A stretch of DNA of 27,090 nt from the NCBI GenBank assembly GCA_028691335.1, contig JAQUZK010000001.1, positions 1-27,090 of the forward strand, read 5' to 3'. The translations under genes and the position numbers were made by a program. Below the pieces are notes generated by a model. The model searched no databases and was not told the origin of the DNA. It saw only the letters and a list, made by a program, of their open reading frames with translations. The DNA comes from Candidatus Izemoplasmatales bacterium (GTDB lineage: Bacteria; Bacillota_I; Bacilli_A; Izemoplasmatales; Hujiaoplasmataceae). Below, piece after piece: positions 3,495 through 24,018 of the stretch; within the stretch, counting starts at the first letter, position 1, and each line of letters begins with the position of its first letter.

Positions 3495-3520
3495 AGGAGA
3501 CAGTAAAGTCTCCTTTTTTT
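3495..3520 (+). terminator. Intrinsic terminator between convergent genes
   Basis: AGGAGAC-AGTAAA-GTCTCCT followed by a T run. Confidence 0.8.
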
Positions 3521-4364
3521 ATTTGGCTAAATTGTAATTTTCTGAAAGAAAATAAAGCATCTTATCATATAAAGCTCTATCATAAAAATATCCATAGATA
3601 TCAGCTAGTTTTCTAGAAAAGCAGTCAAATAACTCTAAAGTTTGAAATAAGCCAGATTTAATACTATTTATTTTAATACTAGCATACGTATTTAAGTATT
3701 TTTCATAAATCTCTTTTGGTAGTAACTCTTTATACTTTTTTTTCATCTTTCCAACAGAAATCTTATAATCATGGTTATAACCTATCCACCAATCAAGTAT
3801 ATTATCCAGTTCTTCCCTTATGATATTTAAATGCTTATAAGCATAAATCACTTCATTTCTTGATAGTCCTTTAGCTACATAAGGTAAAACCCAAAAAAAT
3901 TCATTAACTGTAAATGAAAAATCTTTTTCATTTATCTTTTCAACATAATAACTAGATTCATTAGGATTAGAGTTAAAACCATAATTATCCTTATCGAGAA
4001 TTATCTTAGATAAAGAATCCTTCTTTATAGCTTTATCAATATTCTTTATATCTACAATATTCAAATCTAATCTTGTGCCATCAAAGAATTGTAACATATA
4101 GATATATGAGTTAGATGATTCATCATAATCTCTCTGTTCTTTAGAACATTGAGACACAAGAGGCTTATCAAAATCATTTTTCCATGATTCATCTTTAAGA
4201 AAAGCTTTAAAATTTTTAACATAAAAGACAATATCAAAGTCTTGGTATTGGTCTTTAGTTATATTAGGATTAACCCTAGAACCATTCATCTCAACTACTC
4301 TGACATTTTCAGTTCTTTTTGCTAGATCAATTATTTTATCAAATAAAACTTGGTTTTTATCCAT
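3519..4364 (-). CDS. Aminoglycoside 6-adenylyltransferase family protein (AadK/AadE/ANT(6)-like)
   Basis: N-terminal MNGSRVNPN...DQYQDFDIV nucleotidyltransferase motif, FFDGTRLDL, NEFFWV and a 281-aa length all match the AadK family. Substrate is not established. Confidence 0.85.
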   Translation of the reverse strand: MDKNQVLFDKIIDLAKRTENVRVVEMNGSRVNPNITKDQYQDFDIVFYVKNFKAFLKDESWKNDFDKPLVSQCSKEQRDYDESSNSYIYMLQFFDGTRLDLNIVDIKNIDKAIKKDSLSKIILDKDNYGFNSNPNESSYYVEKINEKDFSFTVNEFFWVLPYVAKGLSRNEVIYAYKHLNIIREELDNILDWWIGYNHDYKISVGKMKKKYKELLPKEIYEKYLNTYASIKINSIKSGLFQTLELFDCFSRKLADIYGYFYDRALYDKMLYFLSENYNLAK

Positions 4365-8247: not shown

Positions 8248-10167
8248 TTATCCGATAATTCCCCAAACTAATTCTACATAGCCAGGATTATCAATATAAG
8301 GATTTCTATTCTTTTGATACTTGTAGATTACTTCATTTCTATTTCTTTCAAAATCATCCACAGGATCGATTATATGCCATTGCATCAAAACATCTAAATC
8401 ACCTAAATTATCAATGTTAAGGGCTGGATACATCGTCGCCATGTAGAATAAAATTCTTGCGACATCTCCTTTTACATCATCATGTGGTTCATAAACTCCA
8501 CTACCGCTCATATAACCAAAAGGCAAGTTTCCTCTTCTGCTATTTTCAGCTACATCGGCTGGTTTTAAGTTATGCATATCTGCTTTTTGACCAGATGCTA
8601 AAAGTTTTGATTGTGGCCAAGTATGTTCTCTATTCCAATTTGGATAATTCCATTTTCCAGGTACTGATTCTCTAGTATAAACTAAAATCACATTATTAGG
8701 ATTACTTGGATCACGATCAGACTCTTCTAAAACCCATTTAGCATCATCATATGACAATTGTTTAAATCCATTATTAATGATTCTATTTAACTCATTGAAA
8801 AGTGCCATTCCGCTTAAACCTTCAGCGGAATCATAGTATGCTAAATCAGAAGTTTCATTTCCTAAAGCTTTGACAGTGATATCAATATCAACAACCATAG
8901 GAACTTCATCATTCAAACTTACTCTTACTTGGATATATCCAGATATATCCCCTGTCGCTTCTTCAGGTCTTGTAACAAGCAATTTAGAATTAAGGAAACT
9001 TACATAATCCTTTAAAGATTCACTTACAAAAACAACTTCATAAGTAGAACCATAAAAACCTGCTTCAAAATCATAATCACTATAAAGATTCTTAGATTCT
9101 GGTAAGTTCAAAACATCTTTTTCAAGCGCTTCAGAATCTTCAAGTTCAGCTATATCAATATGCGATTGATTTCCTTGAAAAGCATATCTTTCTACTTCAT
9201 CTCCAACTGCATAATATAACAAATCTACAGTTACGATTTCTCCTTGATAGGCTTTAATTGATTCGATAGATTTTTCTAAAGATTTATAGTAGATTTCCGC
9301 TACTTTTTGATTTCCTACATATAAATAAGCTGTATCATATGTACCTTCAATTCTTACTTCTCCAGTAATTCTATAAACTTTTCCTGGAACTAAATCAGTC
9401 ACGCCAAACTCATAGTTTATAACTTCTTGGTTGATTTCTTGTTCAAAAAGATTAGTTTCTAATATAACTGGATTCTTTATTTGTTTTACTTCTCTATAGG
9501 TAGTAAGTTCACCCTTTACTACAACTCTAGATCCTAACTCTACATCTGGAGCTGTTCTATCTGTAAAAATAAATAGATTAGCTGTATCATCTTGGATATA
9601 ATATCCGTTTTGTGTCATATAATAAACAACGCCGCTTACTTCGATTTCTTCACCATCATTCATTGTATGAACAACACTTAAATCTAAGTAATCATCATAA
9701 TAATCATTATTTACTTCTTGCCAATGAGCATACAAGGTAATGCTTTCATCAACAGGGGTATTCCCGAAAATAGGTTCATTATTTTCTGTAAACCATCCTA
9801 AAAATGTATATCCATCTTTAATCGGTATTACAAGGTCTAAATATTCACCTAAATATATTGATTGACTATCTACATTGCTTCCACCCATTGAATCAAAACT
9901 AATTGTAATAACTTTTAACTCTTCAGTAGTTGTCGTTTCTTGAGCAGTTGTTTCAGTAGTTATTGTACTTTCAATTGTAGTAACAGTACTATTTGTAGTG
10001 ACAGTTCCTGAAGTACTACTTCCGTCTAATGTAGTAGTAGTTGAAGAAACTTCACTGCTCGAAATATCAGTTGAAACAGGATTCGTTGTTTTCGTGGTCA
10101 ATTGATCACAGGCAATTAGCACCAACGAAAATGCTAAAATAATAAAGCTTGCAAGTAATTTTTTCAT
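8248..10167 (-). CDS. Surface lipoprotein nuclease: S/T linker, InlB B-repeat, OB-fold(s), endonuclease I (His-Me finger) domain
   Basis: Lipobox LIAC; S/T-rich tract; GYTFLGWF...ITLYAHW repeat; OB-like VSGVV...GYYIQD...GSRVVVKG; C-terminal NREHTWPQS, DMHNL, NSRRGNLPF, KGDVAR, RNPYIDNP. Confidence 0.88.
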   Translation of the reverse strand: MKKLLASFIILAFSLVLIACDQLTTKTTNPVSTDISSSEVSSTTTTLDGSSTSGTVTTNSTVTTIESTITTETTAQETTTTEELKVITISFDSMGGSNVDSQSIYLGEYLDLVIPIKDGYTFLGWFTENNEPIFGNTPVDESITLYAHWQEVNNDYYDDYLDLSVVHTMNDGEEIEVSGVVYYMTQNGYYIQDDTANLFIFTDRTAPDVELGSRVVVKGELTTYREVKQIKNPVILETNLFEQEINQEVINYEFGVTDLVPGKVYRITGEVRIEGTYDTAYLYVGNQKVAEIYYKSLEKSIESIKAYQGEIVTVDLLYYAVGDEVERYAFQGNQSHIDIAELEDSEALEKDVLNLPESKNLYSDYDFEAGFYGSTYEVVFVSESLKDYVSFLNSKLLVTRPEEATGDISGYIQVRVSLNDEVPMVVDIDITVKALGNETSDLAYYDSAEGLSGMALFNELNRIINNGFKQLSYDDAKWVLEESDRDPSNPNNVILVYTRESVPGKWNYPNWNREHTWPQSKLLASGQKADMHNLKPADVAENSRRGNLPFGYMSGSGVYEPHDDVKGDVARILFYMATMYPALNIDNLGDLDVLMQWHIIDPVDDFERNRNEVIYKYQKNRNPYIDNPGYVELVWGIIG

Positions 10168-10316: not shown

Positions 10317-10892
10317 TTATAAAGTCCGATAGATTTCATTATAGATTAGTTCTAATAGTTCGTCTCTTTTAATATCGATTTTATTATCAACATATTGGAA
10401 CATTAACCCGCTGATTATTGATTGAATTACATTAGAGCGGTATGGTCTGTCATCAATACTAATCTCACCATTAACAAGACCTAATTTGAAAATATCATTA
10501 AATCTATCTGTCATGTTTTTTTGTATTAGCTCAATTTTTTCAGAACAAGGATTGAACCTTAAAAACCCTAATTTTGTTGTAGTATTCATAATAACTTCCA
10601 TTATTATTTTTACATCTTCCATTACTTCTAGAATTTTAGAAAGTTGTTCAATCATCGCCTCTTTAAAAGTCTTGTTTTCTATCTTGGATATAAGAATAGT
10701 GTGATACTTATCTAGCAAATGAAAATAAGCTTCTTCAATTAACGCATCTTTATTTTCAAAATACTCATATACTGTCGATTTTCCGATATCTGCGATTTTT
10801 GCGATATCAGAAATCGACACTTGATTTAAACTAGGATCAATCTTAATAAAACCAATAGTCGCATCAAGAATTCTATCCCTCGTTGATTGCAT
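10317..10892 (-). CDS. TetR/AcrR family transcriptional regulator
   Basis: N-terminal HTH SISDIAKIADIGKSTVYEYFENKDAL; 191 aa; overlaps the RND 3' end by 20 nt. Confidence 0.92.
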   Translation of the reverse strand: MQSTRDRILDATIGFIKIDPSLNQVSISDIAKIADIGKSTVYEYFENKDALIEEAYFHLLDKYHTILISKIENKTFKEAMIEQLSKILEVMEDVKIIMEVIMNTTTKLGFLRFNPCSEKIELIQKNMTDRFNDIFKLGLVNGEISIDDRPYRSNVIQSIISGLMFQYVDNKIDIKRDELLELIYNEIYRTL

Positions 10893-13800
10893 TTACTTGA
10901 CCTTCTTCCTTAATCTTTTTACGGTTTAGCATTGCGTAAACTGTAGGAACTACCACCAAAGTAAGAATAGTCGCGTAAATAAGTCCTCCAATCGCTGTTA
11001 CAGCCATAGGTTGTAATAGCTCTGAACCTTCACCAAATCCAATCGCTGTCATTATTAAAGCTAAAATAGTTGTTAGTGCAGTCATTAAAATTGGCCTTAA
11101 TCTAGTTTTACCAGCTTCAACTATAGCATCTTTAATCTTATAGCCTTTTTCTCTTAACTTATTAATATAGTCAATCAATACAATACCATTATTAACGACT
11201 ATACCAATTAAAATAATAAAGCCCATTAATGAAACCATACTAAGATTCATATCTGCGATTAATAAAGCGATTAATCCTCCAGTAAAAGCTAACGGAATAG
11301 TCATAAGAATGATCAATGGATAAACCAGTGATTGGAACTGAATTGCCATAACCATATAAACTAATAGAATAGCCACTAAAGCTGCTAAAGCTAAGTCACC
11401 CATCGCATCAAGGATTTCTTCATTTTCTCCTTGTAGGTTAATGTCATATCCTAATCCATAATCTTTAAAATCATTATCCATATATTCTTCAACCGCTTGC
11501 GTTACTTCACTAGAAACTAAAGTTACATTATAATCTTTTTCAATCGCAGCTGTTACATTGATATATCTTTGATTTCCATCAGTGTTTATAGTCGCAAAAC
11601 CAGTTACTTTCTCTACAATTGTTACACTATCCTCAGTGTTTTCCAGATTATACAAAGGCGCTAATGCCAGTGATGAAAGTGTTGGCAAAGCCATGTTCAT
11701 TGGATCAAAAATAATCTCTTGATCATTGTTAATACGTAAGAATGGGTTAATGATAAATACTATAGGGTCGCCTACTTGATAAGTAGGTAAGACAGCGTTA
11801 TATAGATAAACGCTATTTCCTGATTCAATACTTACATCATTTTCTTCGATGTACTTATCAATCATAGCTTGAGTGGATTGATCAAACAACATTACACCAC
11901 TTAAAAATGTAAGATAATCCCCAAATACACTGAAATTAATATCACCTATTGTATCATTAGGAATTTCGATATCATAATCAACACCTTCAATTTCAACAGA
12001 AAGTGTTTCTGATGATGTAATGCTTTCTAAGTTCTTATATAAATAGTTTAAATTATTTAAAACATCTTGATTAGTTAAACCATATTCCATCGCAACGTTA
12101 TTATCAACAGTTATTTTAACCTGATCGGCTCCTTGATCGATACCGTTAGAAATATCTTCAACGTGCTCGATATTTTCAAGTATTTCTACTAAATCATTCC
12201 CTATTTTTTCTAAAGTTAATAAATCATAACCGCTAACTTTAATATTAACTCCAGATGTACCAGCTAATGACATAGTAGAATTTTGAGCTGAAACTTCATA
12301 ATCAATAATATCATTAGCTGATATATCGATTAGCTTAGAGTAATCAATGTTTTCCACAATATCTCTAATAATAACTTCATTTTCCAAAGTTGAATTTTTA
12401 CGATTATCTTTTAAATTTATTGTCAACGAAATATCTTCGCCGCTAGACATCATGCTCATCATTTGAAATCCTGAGGCATTAGCCCCAACACTGCCTGAGA
12501 CTGTTTCTACGTCTTCAATAGTCATAATTTCTTCTGTTAAATAATCTGCTAGTTCTGCTTTTCCTTGGAAGCTTGTTAATCCTTCAGTTTCGATACTTAT
12601 ACTAATTGTTCCTTCATCAGAACTTGGCAAAAGTACGAATCCTTTACTATAAACTAAAGCAAAAGTTCCAAATAACAATAAGAAAACAACTGCTAAAGTA
12701 ATAATTTTATGTTTAATAGTAAATAGTACGGATGTCTGATACCAAGATTTCATCTTAGCCATAATTTTTCCTTCTTTTTTGATGTGTTGATCATCTAAGA
12801 ATTTAGCACTCATTGAAGGAACTAAGGTTAATGATATAATCAAACTGGCACCTAAGGAATAAGCAATTGTTAAAGCCATCGAAATAAACACATCACTAAT
12901 CATACCCTCTACGAAAACTATCGGTAAAAATACCGCTACAGTTGTTAGGGTAGAAGCTGTGATAGCTCCCGCTACTTCTTTAGCACCTTCTATCGCTGCT
13001 TCTTTTTTAGTTTTACCTTCATTGATCATCCGATAAATATTTTCAATTACTACCACCGCATTATCTACAAGCATACCAATACCCAATGCTAACCCGCCCA
13101 TAGATACTAAGTTTAAAGAAACATCCGTAAAATACATCAACATAAAAGCAGCTATTACAGAGATAGGTATAGCCAAACCAACTATAATTGTTGGTTTAAT
13201 GTTTCTTAAGAAAACAAACAGAATTGCAATCGCTAATAAACCACCAATAATTATGTTCTGTAAAACTGTACTTATAGATTGATTAATGTATTCTCCTTGA
13301 TCAAGTAAAACTAAATATTCTGCATCTGGATAGTTTTCTAAGACACTATCTAACTTAGCATAAATCTTTTCCGTTGCATCCGTGATTCCTACATCACTTT
13401 GTTTTTGAAAAGAAATTTGAATTCCTTGACGACCATTAATCTTTGAATAACTTTCTTCAGCGGAATTGATATATTTAATTCCGTTTTCAATTGTAAGATC
13501 TTCTAAAGTAATTATGTTTCCTGCATCATTTAAAACTGGTAAATTCTTTATTTCTTCAATAGTTTCTGGTTCATCTCCTAGATAAACCATTCTTATTTCT
13601 CCGTTATCTAAAGCAACACCAATTAATCCTCCGACATTCTGTCGTTCGATTATTGATAATACTTCATTTTGAGTTAACCCGAAACTAGAAACAACTGATT
13701 CATCTAAATCTATTTGAAAAATAGTATCTGAAGCACCTGATATACTAACATCAGCTATACCTTCAATACTATTTAACTCATCAAGAATCTCAGTATTAAT

Positions 13801-14277
13801 CCATTCTGTGTTTTTAATAAGTATCTCTTCATCTGTTAGATCTTCATCATAAACATTTGATAAGGTAATTGTCATTACCGGTAACATGTCTGGAGAAATT
13901 CTAAGAATTCTTGTATTGCCAACACCTTCTGAAAAAGTGATATTATTTATGTTTTCTCTCATCTCAATTACTACTGTATCCATATTTGTTTGTTCAGCGA
14001 AAGTTATTATCGATACTGCAAAATTATCATAACTCATCGATTGTACTTCAGAAAAATTACCGATTGTCTGAACCGAAGCTTCAATTTTCTCTGTAACTTC
14101 TCTTTCGATTGTTTCCGGATTTTCACCAGCATAGGTAGTAATTGTAACTACGTATGGAAGATTAATATCCGGAAAAAGTGATAGCGGTAATTTAGTAACC
14201 GAGTAAATTCCCAGTACAATAACTATCAATATTCCCATCAAAACTGTAATTGGTCTTTTAACACTATATTTGCTCAT
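10873..14277 (-). CDS. RND efflux transporter permease (AcrB/SwrC-like)
   Basis: SVKRPITV, PLSLFPDINLP, GMLVDNAVVVIENI (TM4), GIVVNNGIVLID (TM10), RLRPILMT (TM11); two large extracytoplasmic loops. Confidence 0.93.
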   Translation of the reverse strand: MSKYSVKRPITVLMGILIVIVLGIYSVTKLPLSLFPDINLPYVVTITTYAGENPETIEREVTEKIEASVQTIGNFSEVQSMSYDNFAVSIITFAEQTNMDTVVIEMRENINNITFSEGVGNTRILRISPDMLPVMTITLSNVYDEDLTDEEILIKNTEWINTEILDELNSIEGIADVSISGASDTIFQIDLDESVVSSFGLTQNEVLSIIERQNVGGLIGVALDNGEIRMVYLGDEPETIEEIKNLPVLNDAGNIITLEDLTIENGIKYINSAEESYSKINGRQGIQISFQKQSDVGITDATEKIYAKLDSVLENYPDAEYLVLLDQGEYINQSISTVLQNIIIGGLLAIAILFVFLRNIKPTIIVGLAIPISVIAAFMLMYFTDVSLNLVSMGGLALGIGMLVDNAVVVIENIYRMINEGKTKKEAAIEGAKEVAGAITASTLTTVAVFLPIVFVEGMISDVFISMALTIAYSLGASLIISLTLVPSMSAKFLDDQHIKKEGKIMAKMKSWYQTSVLFTIKHKIITLAVVFLLLFGTFALVYSKGFVLLPSSDEGTISISIETEGLTSFQGKAELADYLTEEIMTIEDVETVSGSVGANASGFQMMSMMSSGEDISLTINLKDNRKNSTLENEVIIRDIVENIDYSKLIDISANDIIDYEVSAQNSTMSLAGTSGVNIKVSGYDLLTLEKIGNDLVEILENIEHVEDISNGIDQGADQVKITVDNNVAMEYGLTNQDVLNNLNYLYKNLESITSSETLSVEIEGVDYDIEIPNDTIGDINFSVFGDYLTFLSGVMLFDQSTQAMIDKYIEENDVSIESGNSVYLYNAVLPTYQVGDPIVFIINPFLRINNDQEIIFDPMNMALPTLSSLALAPLYNLENTEDSVTIVEKVTGFATINTDGNQRYINVTAAIEKDYNVTLVSSEVTQAVEEYMDNDFKDYGLGYDINLQGENEEILDAMGDLALAALVAILLVYMVMAIQFQSLVYPLIILMTIPLAFTGGLIALLIADMNLSMVSLMGFIILIGIVVNNGIVLIDYINKLREKGYKIKDAIVEAGKTRLRPILMTALTTILALIMTAIGFGEGSELLQPMAVTAIGGLIYATILTLVVVPTVYAMLNRKKIKEEGQVNAINEG

Positions 14278-20836: not shown

Positions 20837-21748
20837 TTAAAAATTTTTGTCAATTAAATATATTGATATATTCACTTTAGGTTTGCCAAAATCATCTTCT
20901 TCTATATTTTTTACTTTACAGGTTATATATCCCGATTTAAACTCTATGAAATAATCAATCTCTTCTTCTACTTTTTCATTCACTTTGCCGAGTTCATTAT
21001 ATTGACTATCTAATAAAACATATCCCTCATATGAATCTTCTTCAACTATAAGAATATCATTGATTTCTAAATCTAACTGGGCATCTAATCGTTCTTCATA
21101 CTCTTCTTTATCATAATTATTGTAAATCTTTGTTTCAATAGTTTTCACTTTATTAGAATTATCTAAATCGATATATTTATAAAATGCAAGAGCTACTTCT
21201 ATCGACTTATTTTCTTCATCTACTTTATTAATAATCATTACTGGTTTATAATCCTTTGATTTAAAAAAATATTTTTTAACCATATCTCTGATATTACCTT
21301 TATAAAGATAACCAAGTAAAGACTTATCTTTATAAAGTGCTATTGTCTCTTCGTCATATTCGTTATTTGGCTCCTCATTGAAAATGAGGTTATCTTGATT
21401 TCCTGGTTTTATAACTGAAAAGTTTTGAGGTAAAGCTAAATCAATATTATATTTCCACTTTAAGATATAGCTATCAAAAAAAACAGGAAAAACATCTCTA
21501 TAGTCTTTTGACAAAGTATCCTGTTTAGTCTCCTCTTCAAGTTTTTTTGGTTTTGTCCATACATAGGCTACAATCAAAAAGATAATTGAAACTACGAAAA
21601 TAAAACTAAAAATAGTATTAATCGTTTCAAGTTCAGCTTTATTTGAGGTTGAGTAAAATACAATTAAAGAAATTGTAGTTATAGCAATTAAAGCATATTT
21701 GATGATATTTTGGGTTCCTTTTGGCAAATTTAAAAACTTCTTTTTCAT
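20837..21748 (-). CDS. Membrane-anchored HIRAN-domain protein
   Basis: Two N-terminal TM helices, then LIFNEEPNNEYDEETIALY...LLGYL (HIRAN core EP.N.YD..A/T...lGYl); GGAGG RBS 8 nt before ATG 21748. Confidence 0.75.
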   Translation of the reverse strand: MKKKFLNLPKGTQNIIKYALIAITTISLIVFYSTSNKAELETINTIFSFIFVVSIIFLIVAYVWTKPKKLEEETKQDTLSKDYRDVFPVFFDSYILKWKYNIDLALPQNFSVIKPGNQDNLIFNEEPNNEYDEETIALYKDKSLLGYLYKGNIRDMVKKYFFKSKDYKPVMIINKVDEENKSIEVALAFYKYIDLDNSNKVKTIETKIYNNYDKEEYEERLDAQLDLEINDILIVEEDSYEGYVLLDSQYNELGKVNEKVEEEIDYFIEFKSGYITCKVKNIEEDDFGKPKVNISIYLIDKNF

Positions 21749-21771
21749 TGTCATCTCCTCCATTTATTTTT

Positions 21772-21800: not shown

Positions 21801-21924
21801 ACTAAAGAGGTTTTAGTTCAAAAAAAGATAAATAAATAAGTTCTAGATGGTTTATTTAATTTGTTTTACGACTGTGCTATAATGTGTATAAAATCACAAA
21901 TTATATGAAGGGAAAGTGAATTAA

Positions 21925-24018
21925 ATGAATCTTACTTTGGCAATTGTTTTTAGTATTGTTATTTCTTTGGCTGCTTTTTTAATGGCCGGTTGGCTTTACT
22001 TGTGGATTAAAAAGCAAGATAGTAGTAATGTTAAAATTAAAACTATTAGCGATTTAATCAAGAGTGGGGCTAATACTTTTTTAAGAAAAGAATACACCAT
22101 ATTAGCTAAGTTCGCTGGTGTAGCTTTCATATTGATTTTAGTATTTTTACCAAAACCAATTTGGAATCAACCTGATTTTAATGCAATTTTAAGTAATAAT
22201 ATTGCGATGAGTTTAGCTTATGTCTTTGGTACAGTGTTCAGTGGAATGGCAGGAAAAATTGGTATTTTTGTAGCTACAATAGCTAACAAGAAAACTGCTG
22301 AAGCTGCCACAAGAGGTATCGCTCCAAGTTTCTTAAACGGTTTTAGAGGTGGAGCTGTAATGGGTATGGCTGTTGTTGGATCAAGTTTACTTGGAGTAGC
22401 TTTATTCTTCTGGATCACTGAAAATCCAACAATGCTTTTAGGGTTTAGTTTTGGAGCTTCATCATTAGCTTTATTCGCAAAAGCTGGTGGAGGCATTTAC
22501 ACAAAAACAGCTGATATTAGTGCTGATTTAGTTGGTAAAGTTGAGTTAGGAATTGCGGAAGATGATCCTAGAAATCCAGCAGTTATTGCGGATAATGTTG
22601 GCGATAATGTTGGTGATGTAGCCGGTATGGGAGCGGACCTTTTTGACTCTCATGTGGCTTCTTTAGCAGCCGCTTTAGTAATGGCTGCTTCAATTGATTC
22701 GGCTTCAAACTCTCATAATGTAGAGATGGTTTTCATCTTCGCTGCACTTGGTTTGTTATCCTCAATAATAGGTGTTGTTTTTGCTAAAATGGGAAAAAAA
22801 GAAAATCCTACCAGAGCACTTAATCTTAGCACTTATATTACAACTGGAATTTTTGCAGTATTAACTTTGTTAGCGACGTTTTTATTTAAGTTTGAATGGC
22901 GTTTATATATAGTCACTGTATTAGGATTATTAGTAGGCGTTATTATTGGTATTACTACTGACTATTTTACAAATGATGAAAAAACACCGGTAAGAAAAGT
23001 TGCTAAAGCAAGTGAGAGCGGACCTGCATTAACTATCATATCTGGTACATCTTATGGTTTCTTATCAGTTCTACCCGCTATGATAGGTATTGCGATTTCC
23101 GCTTTTATATCATACAAAATAGCCGCACCATTGGGTGATGGTTATGCTTTATTCGGAATATCAATTGCAGCTGTTGGTATGTTGTCAATCGTAGGAATGA
23201 TAATATCTAACGATGCTTATGGTCCTATTGTAGATAACGCTAGAGGATTAGCTGAAATGGGTGGATTAGGTGAAGATGTAATTAGAATTACTGATGAACT
23301 TGATTCAGCTGGTAATACTGTTAAAGCAGTTACTAAAGGCTTTGCGATAGCAGCTGCTGGTTTAACTGTTATTTCTCTATTAGCTGCATTTATAAGTGAG
23401 GTTAATGACGCAGCTATAGAACTAGGGGTAGCCGGTATTGAAGGTTTTGATATTATGAATCCAGCGGTATTTTTTGGATTATTAATAGGAGCTGCTGTGC
23501 CTGCAGTTTTCTCTAGTTTATTGATGCTAGGAGTAAATAAAAACGCTGAAAGAATGGTTGCGGAAATCCATAGACAATTTGACGAAATACCTGGTCTCAA
23601 AGAAGGTTTGGAAGGTGTTATGCCTGAATCAGATAAATGTATTGATATCGCAACTGAAGGTGCTCTTAAAGAACTTCTTCCAGCAGGGGCTTTTGCTATA
23701 ATAATCACTATAATCGTTGGCTTAATCGGTGGTGTTCACGCAATAGGTGGCTTCTTAGCTGGAAATATAGTTTCCGGTGTTCTCCTTGCATTGTTCATGT
23801 CTAATAGTGGTGGTTTATGGGATAACGGTAAAAAATACATCGAAGCCGGCCATCATGGCGGAAAAGGTTCAGACGCTCATAAAGCAGCTGTTGTTGGAGA
23901 CACAGTCGGTGATCCTTTCAAGGATACTGCTGGCCCATCAATCAACACTCAAATTACAGTTGTAAGTCTTGTAGCTTCTTTATTCGCAGTAATTTTCTTA
24001 ACATTCCATTTATTCTAA
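21925..24018 (+). CDS. hppA: Membrane-bound ion-translocating pyrophosphatase, K+-independent signature, atypical gate
   Basis: GGGIYTK.AD..ADLVGKVE, EDDPRNPAVIADNVGDNVGD, DAYGP..DN, GNTVKAVTKG, WDN.KKYIE, GDTVGDPFKDTAGPS; about 16 TM segments. Confidence 0.95.
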   Translation: MNLTLAIVFSIVISLAAFLMAGWLYLWIKKQDSSNVKIKTISDLIKSGANTFLRKEYTILAKFAGVAFILILVFLPKPIWNQPDFNAILSNNIAMSLAYVFGTVFSGMAGKIGIFVATIANKKTAEAATRGIAPSFLNGFRGGAVMGMAVVGSSLLGVALFFWITENPTMLLGFSFGASSLALFAKAGGGIYTKTADISADLVGKVELGIAEDDPRNPAVIADNVGDNVGDVAGMGADLFDSHVASLAAALVMAASIDSASNSHNVEMVFIFAALGLLSSIIGVVFAKMGKKENPTRALNLSTYITTGIFAVLTLLATFLFKFEWRLYIVTVLGLLVGVIIGITTDYFTNDEKTPVRKVAKASESGPALTIISGTSYGFLSVLPAMIGIAISAFISYKIAAPLGDGYALFGISIAAVGMLSIVGMIISNDAYGPIVDNARGLAEMGGLGEDVIRITDELDSAGNTVKAVTKGFAIAAAGLTVISLLAAFISEVNDAAIELGVAGIEGFDIMNPAVFFGLLIGAAVPAVFSSLLMLGVNKNAERMVAEIHRQFDEIPGLKEGLEGVMPESDKCIDIATEGALKELLPAGAFAIIITIIVGLIGGVHAIGGFLAGNIVSGVLLALFMSNSGGLWDNGKKYIEAGHHGGKGSDAHKAAVVGDTVGDPFKDTAGPSINTQITVVSLVASLFAVIFLTFHLF

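Follow-up and report, generated by a model that had tools for sequence, protein, structure and literature searches.

Analysis of a 27,090-nucleotide stretch of a Candidatus Izemoplasmatales genome (the window, read on the forward strand) identified a membrane-bound pyrophosphatase (mPPase), P0001, which combines an intact hydrolytic centre with a rebuilt ion gate. This gate lacks the Lys and the Glu that all relatives studied so far possess. P0001 belongs to a deep branch of K12.46-bearing mPPases for which no earlier description was found in the searchable literature. Alignments and trees showed a coordinated rebuilding of the gate on the stem of this branch, in which R5.50 became Lys, E6.53 became Asp, K16.50 became a small uncharged residue and I/P16.47 became Thr. 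We consider it somewhat probable that P0001 is a K+-independent PPi-energised cation pump in which the gate salt bridge is now formed by K5.50 and D6.50/D6.53. The features of the gene are as follows.

21875-21883, + strand: candidate extended -10 promoter element TGCTATAAT, a by-eye consensus match only
21907-21916, + strand: candidate ribosome-binding site GAAGGGAAAG, 8 nt upstream of the ATG, found by eye
21925-24018, + strand: hppA-like gene for the membrane-bound pyrophosphatase P0001, 697 amino acids, from the open reading frame list and translation
22459-22482, + strand: TM5 gate/funnel segment, with S179 (5.43) kept and K186 (5.50) replacing the usual Arg, from alignment to Vigna radiata (Vr) S235/R242
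22636-22659, + strand: TM6 gate segment, with D238 (6.50), D241 (6.53), S242 (6.54), H243 (6.55) and A245 (6.57, no Glu), from alignment and codon check
23323-23337, + strand: TM12 cationic centre, with K467 (12.46), T470 (12.49) and K471 (12.50), from GNTVKAVTKG aligned to Vr GNTTAAIGKG
23944-23958, + strand: TM16 gate segment, with N674 (16.46), T675 (16.47, clade-specific) and T678 (16.50, replacing the gate Lys), from the ungapped match of GPSINTQIT to Vr GPSLNILIK

The gene ends in a TAA stop codon (24016-24018) and its product matches the H_PPase profile of the membrane-bound pyrophosphatase family (PF03030, TC 3.A.10) end to end, scoring 762 bits where the cut-off is 29.7 and aligning over profile positions 2-645 of 645, as well as the solved structures 4A01 (1e-135), 8B37 (3e-132) and 4AV3 (2e-118). 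It encodes the sole mPPase of the 1.45-Mb genome and is under strong purifying selection, with a dN/dS of 0.054 against a relative at 89% identity. A scan for promoter-like sites found no excess over shuffled sequence. Gene neighbourhood was not conserved between the window, where the flanking genes encode a membrane protein without a Pfam match and a GNAT protein, and homologue locus L002, where they are MFS transporter and NADH-dehydrogenase-like genes. Two compost runs labelled 'transcriptomic' were flagged as probably DNA and covered the gene in patches only.

The residues of the hydrolytic centre are all present (K194, D197, D201, E212, D213, D214, D223, D227, D231, D430, D437, N464, K471, D633, K636, K637, D659, D663, K666 and D667), each aligning to its V. 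radiata counterpart and each invariant in a 13-member clade alignment; the set was scored at positions 5.58, 5.61, 5.65, 5.76, 5.77, 6.35, 6.39, 6.43, 11.57, 12.43, 12.50, 15.61, 15.64, 16.31, 16.35, 16.38 and 16.39. The original prediction, made by eye, that the PPi/Mg-binding motifs are present was borne out by alignment to 4A01, in which every residue was found. The PPi, Mg and nucleophile machinery is complete, and the enzyme is intact and maintained by selection. K467 had likewise been proposed as the Lys of K+-independence, and it does occupy 12.46, with T470 at 12.49, in GNTVKAVTKG. As K12.46/T12.49 is the K+-independence signature (PMC10897367, PMC6882861), P0001 by alignment bears the signature of K+-independent mPPases.

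Assignment of the gate residues agreed between an ungapped HMMER alignment to 4A01, two MAFFT alignments and a codon check. K186 (codon AAA, 22480-22482) corresponds to Vr R242 at 5.50; D241 (GAC, 22645-22647) corresponds to Vr G297 and Thermotoga maritima (Tm) E246 at 6.53, with Asp replacing the semi-conserved Glu; A245 corresponds to Vr E301 at 6.57; and T678 (ACA, 23956-23958) corresponds to Vr K742 at 16.50. Alignment to solved structures and the codon check thus confirmed the departures from consensus first noticed at K186, D241 and T678, as well as the lack of a compensating Glu at the Vr E301 position, and the reference numbering given at that stage (Tm R191/K707, Vr R242/K742) agrees with PMC6882861 Table 3. 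Across the family R5.50 is conserved at 86% and K16.50 at 94.5% (PMC6882861 Table 3), and both the funnel Arg and the gate Lys are absent from P0001. The codon check found no Lys or Arg in the C-terminal helix after K666, and none anywhere in TM16, so alternative alignments are unable to place a gate Lys and none can be aligned at 16.50. The semi-conserved gate Glu is missing from all three of its sites (6.53, D241; 6.57, A245; 5.43, S179), with a carboxylate still present at 6.53 as Asp, and the coupling funnel is complete except for R5.50K. Glu at 6.53 had been described as the state of Na+-PPases, which is true of those enzymes, but canonical K+-independent H+-PPases have it too (PMC10897367). 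Sequencing error at the three codons was considered, each being one base from the canonical residue, and was rejected, as the pattern recurs in all homologues and metagenome contigs contain zero variants at these codons.

The K/D/T gate pattern occurs in 120 of the 120 nearest homologues (73-100% identity), and the branch extends through Izemoplasmatales-like Bacilli, Clostridia, Anaerolineae, Asgard archaea, Bathyarchaeia and Paceibacterota. Enzymes with K5.50, D6.53 and a non-Lys 16.50 form one side of a branch supported at 98/99 in the careful tree (SH-aLRT 94 in a 126-row tree), which separates them from K12.46-bearing representatives with R5.50, E6.53 and K16.50. They are separate from the canonical K+-dependent enzymes too, and rooting the tree within the latter makes them sister to those K12.46-bearing representatives. 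This upholds the earlier suggestion that the enzyme belongs to a subfamily of its own, with a gate chemistry unlike the usual one. K5.50 was found in 12 of 13 non-redundant clade members (92%) and in none of 108 other representatives; D6.53 is invariant in the clade, compared with Glu in about 87% of other representatives; 16.50 is T, A, C, V or Y, compared with Lys in 92% of other mPPases; and T16.47 is present in 92% of the clade and 3% elsewhere. Together with the further signatures A12.56 and L13.46 and position 584 (M to L), these make up the full list of clade-discriminating columns; the rest of the membrane core was examined for a newly conserved basic residue, and none was found. Other mPPases are at least 80% conserved at 144 columns. 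The clade departs from their consensus at only 4 of these, and three of the four (5.50, 6.53 and 16.50) fall among 12 gate/funnel positions set beforehand (p = 0.0017). D6.50, D6.53, S6.54, N16.46 and S5.43 are invariant in the clade across bacterial and archaeal phyla, and the coupling funnel apart from 5.50 is likewise kept. Across the sampled mPPases, loss of K16.50 requires at least seven separate events; its association with loss of the gate Glu is a trend only, with 3-4 of 7 independent contrasts concordant and 0-1 opposite (p ~0.125).

In the mechanism we favour, the canonical TM16-TM6 salt bridge of K16.50 with D6.50 and E6.53/6.57 would be replaced by a TM5-TM6 pair, in which a flexible K5.50 bridges to D6.50/D6.53, and uptake and release of the transported ion would take place at D6.53. 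In its host, an anaerobic fermenter with a small genome, the pump may serve to recover energy from the PPi that biosynthesis produces. K186 is a plausible replacement gate charge, and among sampled mPPases K5.50 was seen in this clade alone. One clade member, P0268, combines Q5.50 with A16.50, indicating that K5.50 is not strictly required. H243 (6.55), which had also been suggested to replace the lost charge, was rejected for this role: His is confined to the nearest subclade (107 of the 120 nearest homologues, the other 13 having Asn), and Y, F, K, L or D is found deeper in the clade. The charge of the gate changes from two positive and two negative residues in canonical enzymes to one positive and two negative in the clade, which favours a permanently bound cation and is a point against our preferred explanation.

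The pumped ion is most likely H+, an assignment in which we have roughly even confidence, because the characterised K12.46 enzymes all pump H+; K+-independent Na+-PPases are said to be absent from nature (PMC9408878). Five related genomes hold a clade-type mPPase together with a canonical A12.46/E6.53/D16.46 (Na+-PPase-like) paralogue, suggesting that the two types are non-redundant, and in a Eubacteriales host that has no mPPase other than the clade type, the F-type c subunit is without Na+ ligands. However, published models give K16.50 a central part in gating and also in keeping the Na+ site of H+ pumps blocked (PMC5150537, PMC10897367), and its loss could open a Na+ site or uncouple the pump.

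Opening of the site would make P0001 a natural K+-independent Na+ (or Na+/H+) pump, which is possible but which we think unlikely. The ion would be held by D6.50, D6.53, S6.54, N16.46 and possibly T16.47 in a net negative site that is never blocked without K16.50, and would be expelled upon PPi binding or hydrolysis. The Goldman-group model, in which K16.50 destroys the Na+ site of H+ pumps (PMC10897367, PMC5150537), argues for this given the absence of K16.50 and the loss of one positive charge from the gate, and engineered A12.46K Na+-PPases still move Na+, so that K12.46 is compatible with Na+ pumping (PMC9408878). The host genome encodes a soluble PPase of family I, along with an F-type ATP synthase and a V/A-type ATPase. 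A Na+ pump would be compatible with the F-type c ring of the host, since its c subunit carries the full Na+-binding motif Q...ETT..Y, with the Na+ rings 4BEM, 3ZK1 and 1YCE as best PDB matches. Between genera of the host's order, moreover, the clade (KD) type and the canonical Na+-PPase-like enzyme replace one another. Nevertheless, no natural K12.46 Na+ pump is known (PMC9408878), the Glu ligand is shortened to an Asp that may fall short of the Na+ ion, and the variation of 16.50 among T, A, C, V and Y implies that it is not a conserved ligand. Retention of both enzyme types in the five genomes also argues against Na+ pumping, as does one host genome with H+-type F and V c subunits only. A general tie between the clade and Na+-type ATPase c rings was rejected as inconsistent: the host has a Na+-type F c subunit, whereas Q32 and S66 are missing from the F c subunits of the Eubacteriales host and of Clostridium prolinivorans, whose cultured strain PYR-10 has an orthologue of P0001 (locus L008). 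A V-type c subunit that resembles NtpK and carries a TQ...E motif is also encoded by C. prolinivorans. We would advance only tentatively the claim of a first natural K+-independent Na+ (or Na+/H+) PPase or, more generally, of a primary pump that gates without the TM16 Lys, which every current mPPase mechanism takes to be the moving part of the gate.

Uncoupling appears improbable. An uncoupled or weakly coupled P0001 would have lost its vectorial gate and would simply hydrolyse PPi, or would act as a regulator or ion leak under the control of PPi. In favour of this, pumping has been said to require both K16.50 and the semi-conserved Glu (PMC5150537), near-gate mutations in plant enzymes separate hydrolysis from pumping (PMC6882861), and, given a soluble PPase in the genome, bulk removal of PPi does not depend on the mPPase. 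However, this 16-TM protein is under strong purifying selection; a soluble PPase would be far cheaper for mere hydrolysis; the invariance across phyla of the funnel and of D6.50, D6.53, S6.54, N16.46 and S5.43 is hard to explain without transport; and the gate substitutions are specific and co-conserved, not degenerate. It is very improbable that P0001 is an ordinary member of the characterised K+-independent H+-PPase clade with conservative, inconsequential gate changes, since, although R to K and E to D are conservative, K12.46/T12.49 is present and NCBIfam model NF001960 is passed, the 98/99 branch sets the clade apart from canonical K+-independent representatives, K16.50T/A/C/V is not conservative, NF001960 is a catch-all that canonical enzymes pass too, the divergent Na+-regulated subfamily is listed with its semi-conserved Glu at 6.53 (PMC6882861), and the searchable literature, with key subscription papers partly outside it, contained no description of a K+-independent enzyme without K16.50.

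Within that same scope, no paper or specific NCBIfam model describing the K5.50/D6.53/non-Lys16.50 branch was found, and the pattern matched no characterised clade. NF001960 was considered as a clade-specific model and rejected, as canonical K+-independent representatives also clear its threshold and score at least as high; with NF001950, the most divergent model, P0001 scores 212 bits against a cut-off of 826. Automatic annotation labels clade proteins either 'K(+)-stimulated sodium pump' or 'sodium-translocating pyrophosphatase'; at least the K+-stimulated part is probably wrong.

Current models of coupling and selectivity in mPPases centre on the K16.50-E6.53/6.57 pair (PMC5150537, PMC10897367). 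Li et al. 2016 drew a parallel between the motion of K16.50 and the Arg that is essential in F- and P-type ATPases (PMC5150537), and according to Strauss et al. 2024 no residue pattern yet accounts for selectivity across mPPase subclasses (PMC10897367). The clade amounts to a natural experiment in which catalysis is kept and R5.50, E6.53 and K16.50 are replaced together, widely and under purifying selection; because the rebuilt gate marks a whole unstudied branch, it offers a natural test of mPPase gating and ion choice. If the clade pumps H+, the TM16 Lys is dispensable and the models need revision; if it pumps Na+, it represents a class said not to exist in nature. Its hosts are anaerobes living on limited energy, for which conserving energy through PPi is important.

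Among known systems, the canonical K+-independent H+-PPases (Pyrobaculum aerophilum PaPPase, 8B37; the Rhodospirillum rubrum and Streptomyces coelicolor type) share with P0001 the PF03030 fold (3e-132 over residues 8-693), K12.46/T12.49, D6.50, S6.54, N16.46, S5.43, a carboxylate at 6.53 and the absence of Glu at 6.57. P0001 differs from them in having K5.50 (for R), D6.53 (for E), T16.50 (for K) and T16.47 (for P); PaPPase itself has R182 and K691. The K+-dependent H+-PPase of V. radiata (4A01) is the top-scoring solved relative (457 bits), with a hydrolytic centre and funnel identical to those of P0001 except at 5.50, but it has A12.46, G6.53 and an E6.57-K16.50 gate salt bridge where P0001 has D6.53, A6.57 and T16.50. 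The Na+-PPase of T. maritima (4AV3/5LZQ) shares an acidic 6.53 together with D6.50 and S6.54, both Na+ ligands in that enzyme, and differs in E6.53, D16.46, K16.50, A12.46 and R5.50; among the three solved relatives it scores lowest, at 400 bits. P0001 lacks the signature of K+-dependent Na+-PPases and Na+,H+-PPases (A12.46, G/A12.49, E6.53, K16.50), having K, T, D and T instead.

Identity of P0001 to canonical mPPases is 40-47%. For the divergent Na+-regulated H+-PPases (Chlorobium limicola, Cellulomonas fimi), Luoto et al. 2015 reportedly gave 23-34% identity to canonical enzymes. Like P0001, these belong to a non-canonical K12.46 lineage with a full hydrolytic centre; they are listed with E6.53 (PMC6882861 Table 1), in contrast to the D6.53 of P0001. 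This Asp, the 40-47% identity to canonical mPPases and the low NF001950 score argue indirectly against placing P0001 among them. A precedent for the relocation of a key gate residue to TM5, the logic proposed here for the positive charge of K5.50, is found in the Flavobacterium johnsoniae-type H+-PPases, in which the semi-conserved Glu has moved to 5.43 with pumping kept (PMC10897367), although these enzymes are K+-dependent, keep K16.50, and have moved the acid, not the base.

P0001, the 697-residue product of the gene studied here, is a membrane-bound pyrophosphatase (mPPase) by fold and catalytic centre, yet it lacks three gate/funnel features of all studied pumps. It matched Pfam PF03030 (H_PPase) end to end (762 bits), and its closest solved structures were the Vigna radiata (Vr) H+-PPase (4A01, 1e-135), the Pyrobaculum aerophilum (Pa) K+-independent H+-PPase (8B37, 3e-132) and the Thermotoga maritima (Tm) Na+-PPase (4AV3, 2e-118). 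Reviews recognize seven mPPase subfamilies, all with K16.50 (numbered as TM helix.position) and a semi-conserved Glu at 6.53, 6.57 or 5.43 (PMC6882861; PMC5150537). At rest, K16.50 closes the gate together with D6.50/E6.53 in Tm or E6.57 in Vr (PMC5336470); motion of this lysine has been proposed as the unifying gating movement, and it abolishes the Na+ site of H+ pumps (PMC10897367; PMC5150537). The HMMER alignment of P0001 to 4A01 contained no gaps through TM5-6, TM12 and TM16, and HMMER alignments, MAFFT alignments and a codon check gave concordant assignments:

S179: 5.43
K186: 5.50, counterpart of Vr R242
D238: 6.50
D241: 6.53, counterpart of Vr G297 and Tm E246
S242: 6.54
A245: 6.57, counterpart of Vr E301
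K467/T470: 12.46/12.49, K+-independence residues
N674: 16.46
T678: 16.50, counterpart of Vr K742

The original prediction had thus correctly placed K186, D241 and T678 at the gate, K467 as the K+-independence Lys, and no Glu at the Vr E301 position. Its reference numbers (Tm R191/K707, Vr R242/K742) match Table 3 of PMC6882861, where the Pa counterparts are R182/K691. The PPi/Mg-binding motifs it described as present are so: all hydrolytic-centre residues and the remaining coupling funnel are complete in the alignment to 4A01, and both sets are invariant in an alignment of 13 clade members. A Lys alignable at the TM16 gate position, which it had named as counter-evidence, was not found; the codon check detected no Lys or Arg C-terminal to K666 in P0001, so that no realignment could supply a gate lysine. 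Its reading of E6.53 as a Na+-PPase state was too narrow, because canonical K+-independent H+-PPases share this residue (PMC10897367).

K5.50, D6.53 and T16.50 were present in 120/120 nearest homologues (73-100% identity). A search of 1.84 billion cluster representatives yielded 126 full-length representatives for alignment, 16 of which carried the signature S-K-D-D-S-x-A-K-T-N-[T/A/C/V/Y] (positions 5.43, 5.50, 6.50, 6.53, 6.54, 6.55, 6.57, 12.46, 12.49, 16.46 and 16.50), plus one Q5.50 variant. Signature carriers formed one group in a quick tree of 126 rows (SH-aLRT 94) and one side of a 98/99 branch in a careful IQ-TREE analysis of 64 rows including named loci, bearing out the suggested subfamily whose gate chemistry differs; its members share the K/D/non-Lys pattern (the rebuilt-gate clade). 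Across that branch lies the odd sequence P0186, followed by K+-dependent enzymes and, beyond them, the Q5.50 and canonical K+-independent groups. The mPPase root is usually placed among K+-dependent enzymes; if it lies there, all K12.46 lineages would form one clade, with the rebuilt-gate group as its earliest branch and the gate state derived.

Clade hosts include Izemoplasmatales, Acholeplasmataceae, Clostridia (Saccharofermentanales, Oscillospiraceae, Christensenellales and the cultured Clostridium prolinivorans PYR-10), Anaerolineae, Bathyarchaeia, Heimdall- and Thorarchaeota and Paceibacterota, a scatter that implies horizontal transfer among anaerobes. One Bathyarchaeia MAG (G350) holds three rebuilt-gate copies, two complete and one partial (loci L124, L125, L119), which could be paralogues or a strain mixture.

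The remodelling is gate-specific and selected. Among 144 alignment columns at least 80% conserved in non-clade representatives, the clade has lost the consensus at only four: Arg gives way to Lys at 5.50, Glu to Asp at 6.53, Lys to T/A/C/V/Y at 16.50 and Met to Leu at position 584. Three of these fall among the 12 eligible gate/funnel positions, which were fixed beforehand from PMC6882861 (hypergeometric p = 0.0017). A complementary scan added T16.47, A12.56 and L13.46, and no novel basic residue in the membrane core was found among clade-specific residues. H243 (6.55), earlier put forward as a possible substitute charge, does not fit this role across the clade: His is confined to the nearest subclade, the Clostridia subclade has N, and deeper members carry Y/F/K/L/D. 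The sampled family shows at least seven losses of K16.50, the gate Glu being altered alongside in 3-4 of 7 contrasts and opposite in 0-1, a trend that is not significant. A separate K12.46 clade carries Q5.50 with H16.46 (proteins P0171, P0201, P0222, P0234 and others), and P0172, P0258 and P0263 have a base at neither 5.50 nor 16.50.

Judged from the sequences sampled, the family varies more in its gate electrostatics than one would gather from reviews. Holmes et al. put the conservation of K16.50 at 94.5% and that of R5.50 at 86.4% (PMC6882861), so exceptions are present in databases, though undiscussed. We found no description of the rebuilt-gate clade in searchable full text, although earlier mention in subscription papers is possible, and NCBIfam holds no model specific to it. 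NF001960, the sole NCBIfam model that P0001 passes, was rejected as clade-specific, because canonical enzymes pass this catch-all model too.

The gene and its window neighbours are as follows:

21925-24018, plus strand: mPPase ORF, 697 open codons
21875-21883, plus strand: extended -10-like element TGCTATAAT upstream of the mPPase, consensus match only
8 nt 5' of the mPPase ATG, plus strand: candidate ribosome-binding site GAAGGGAAAG, consensus match only
20837-21763, minus strand: divergent 308-aa ORF directly upstream of the mPPase, no Pfam match at E <= 0.001
10317-14277, minus strand: TetR-family regulator gene adjoining a 1134-aa RND (AcrB/MMPL) transporter
8248-10167, minus strand: 639-aa protein with Endonuclease I domain and Listeria-Bacteroides repeat
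3519-4364, minus strand: 281-aa ORF, streptomycin adenylyltransferase family PF04439, full length, 248 bits
3-1718, minus strand: second repeat protein, running past the window end

The mPPase is flanked by genes for a membrane protein without Pfam match, a GNAT protein, a PLP enzyme and a BspA-type LRR protein, all unrelated, so it stands alone; it is under strong purifying selection (dN/dS = 0.054 against a relative at 89% identity). Both repeat proteins are probably surface or secreted. The 639-aa protein is probably a nuclease, which would fit the extracellular DNA degradation proposed for Izemoplasma-like bacteria. The 281-aa ORF is a candidate aminoglycoside nucleotidyltransferase, and the RND transporter is unusual cargo in a wall-less or monoderm small-genome lineage.

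Named homologues of P0001 indicate that the host is an Izemoplasmatales-like member of the Bacilli, detected in landfill, digester, sludge, manure and marine sediment metagenomes. P0001 is the only mPPase in its 1.45-Mb assembly (82% complete), a search of which gave no family II PPase DHHA2 domain. The genome does carry a soluble family I PPase, so bulk PPi need not be cleared by the mPPase, and keeping the pump fits PPi-based energy conservation in a small-genome fermenter. Two rotary ATPase c subunits are also encoded:

Host contig C97, L086 1489-1767, minus strand: F-type ATP synthase c subunit, complete Na+-binding signature GIGQG ... AVAETTGLY
Host contig C198, L087 1246-1695, plus strand: V/A-type c subunit of a second rotary ATPase operon, single hairpin, Thermus K-subunit-like

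The F-type enzyme is probably Na+-coupled by its sequence, its c subunit matching best, in the PDB, the Na+-specific rings of A. woodii (4BEM), F. nucleatum (3ZK1) and I. tartaricus (1YCE); the V/A-type (LGEGVAIYG, no Thr or Gln ligands, ~70-aa N-terminal extension) is probably H+-coupled.

We give roughly even credence to H+ as the pumped ion. H+ is pumped by every characterised K12.46 enzyme, which counts for this reading, and Baykov et al. state that natural K+-independent Na+-PPases do not occur (PMC9408878). In 5/61 related genomes (G009, G012, G020, G024, G032) the rebuilt-gate type is kept together with a canonical A12.46/E6.53/D16.46 paralogue, which is Na+-PPase-like; this suggests different jobs and favours H+. 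So does a Eubacteriales host whose sole mPPase is of the rebuilt-gate type and whose F- and V-type c subunits lack Na+ ligands. A Na+ or dual pump seems less likely. In its favour, the K16.50 that blocks the Na+ site is absent, the gate has an extra negative charge, the complete Na+ motif of the host's F-type c subunit and its closest PDB matches are those of Na+ rings, and the two mPPase types substitute for one another between genera of the host's order. Set beside the invariant funnel, an uncoupled clade is improbable; that P0001 is an ordinary or already known type is, given its own branch, highly doubtful.

The second type in the host's order is canonical, with A12.46, E6.53, D16.46 as in TmPPase, and K16.50 (genomes G004, G009, G012, G039, G043, G047, G053 and G055; loci L098, L104-L112). 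In a subgroup, position 12.49 is Glu (pattern S-A-E-D-K), and a ~20-aa insertion near residue 322 breaks protein matches in two.

With D6.50, D6.53, S6.54, N16.46, S5.43 and the K+-independence lysine conserved, we infer that P0001 would still be a coupled, K+-independent pump. In electrostatic terms, the canonical gate has two bases (R5.50, K16.50) and two acids (D6.50, E6.53), and that of P0001 would have a single base (K5.50) beside two acids (D6.50, D6.53); on the simplest reading the base has shifted from TM16 to TM5. Being more flexible than Arg, Lys at 5.50 might form a pair with D6.50 and with D6.53, whose side chain is shorter; D6.53 may be the uptake/release site of the transported ion. 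One clade member combines Q5.50 with A16.50; together with the few Q5.50-clade sequences that have a base at neither site, this makes K5.50 as gate base plausible on sequence grounds, not compulsory. The proposed shift of the base resembles Flavobacterium-type pumps, whose gate Glu has moved to 5.43 (PMC10897367).
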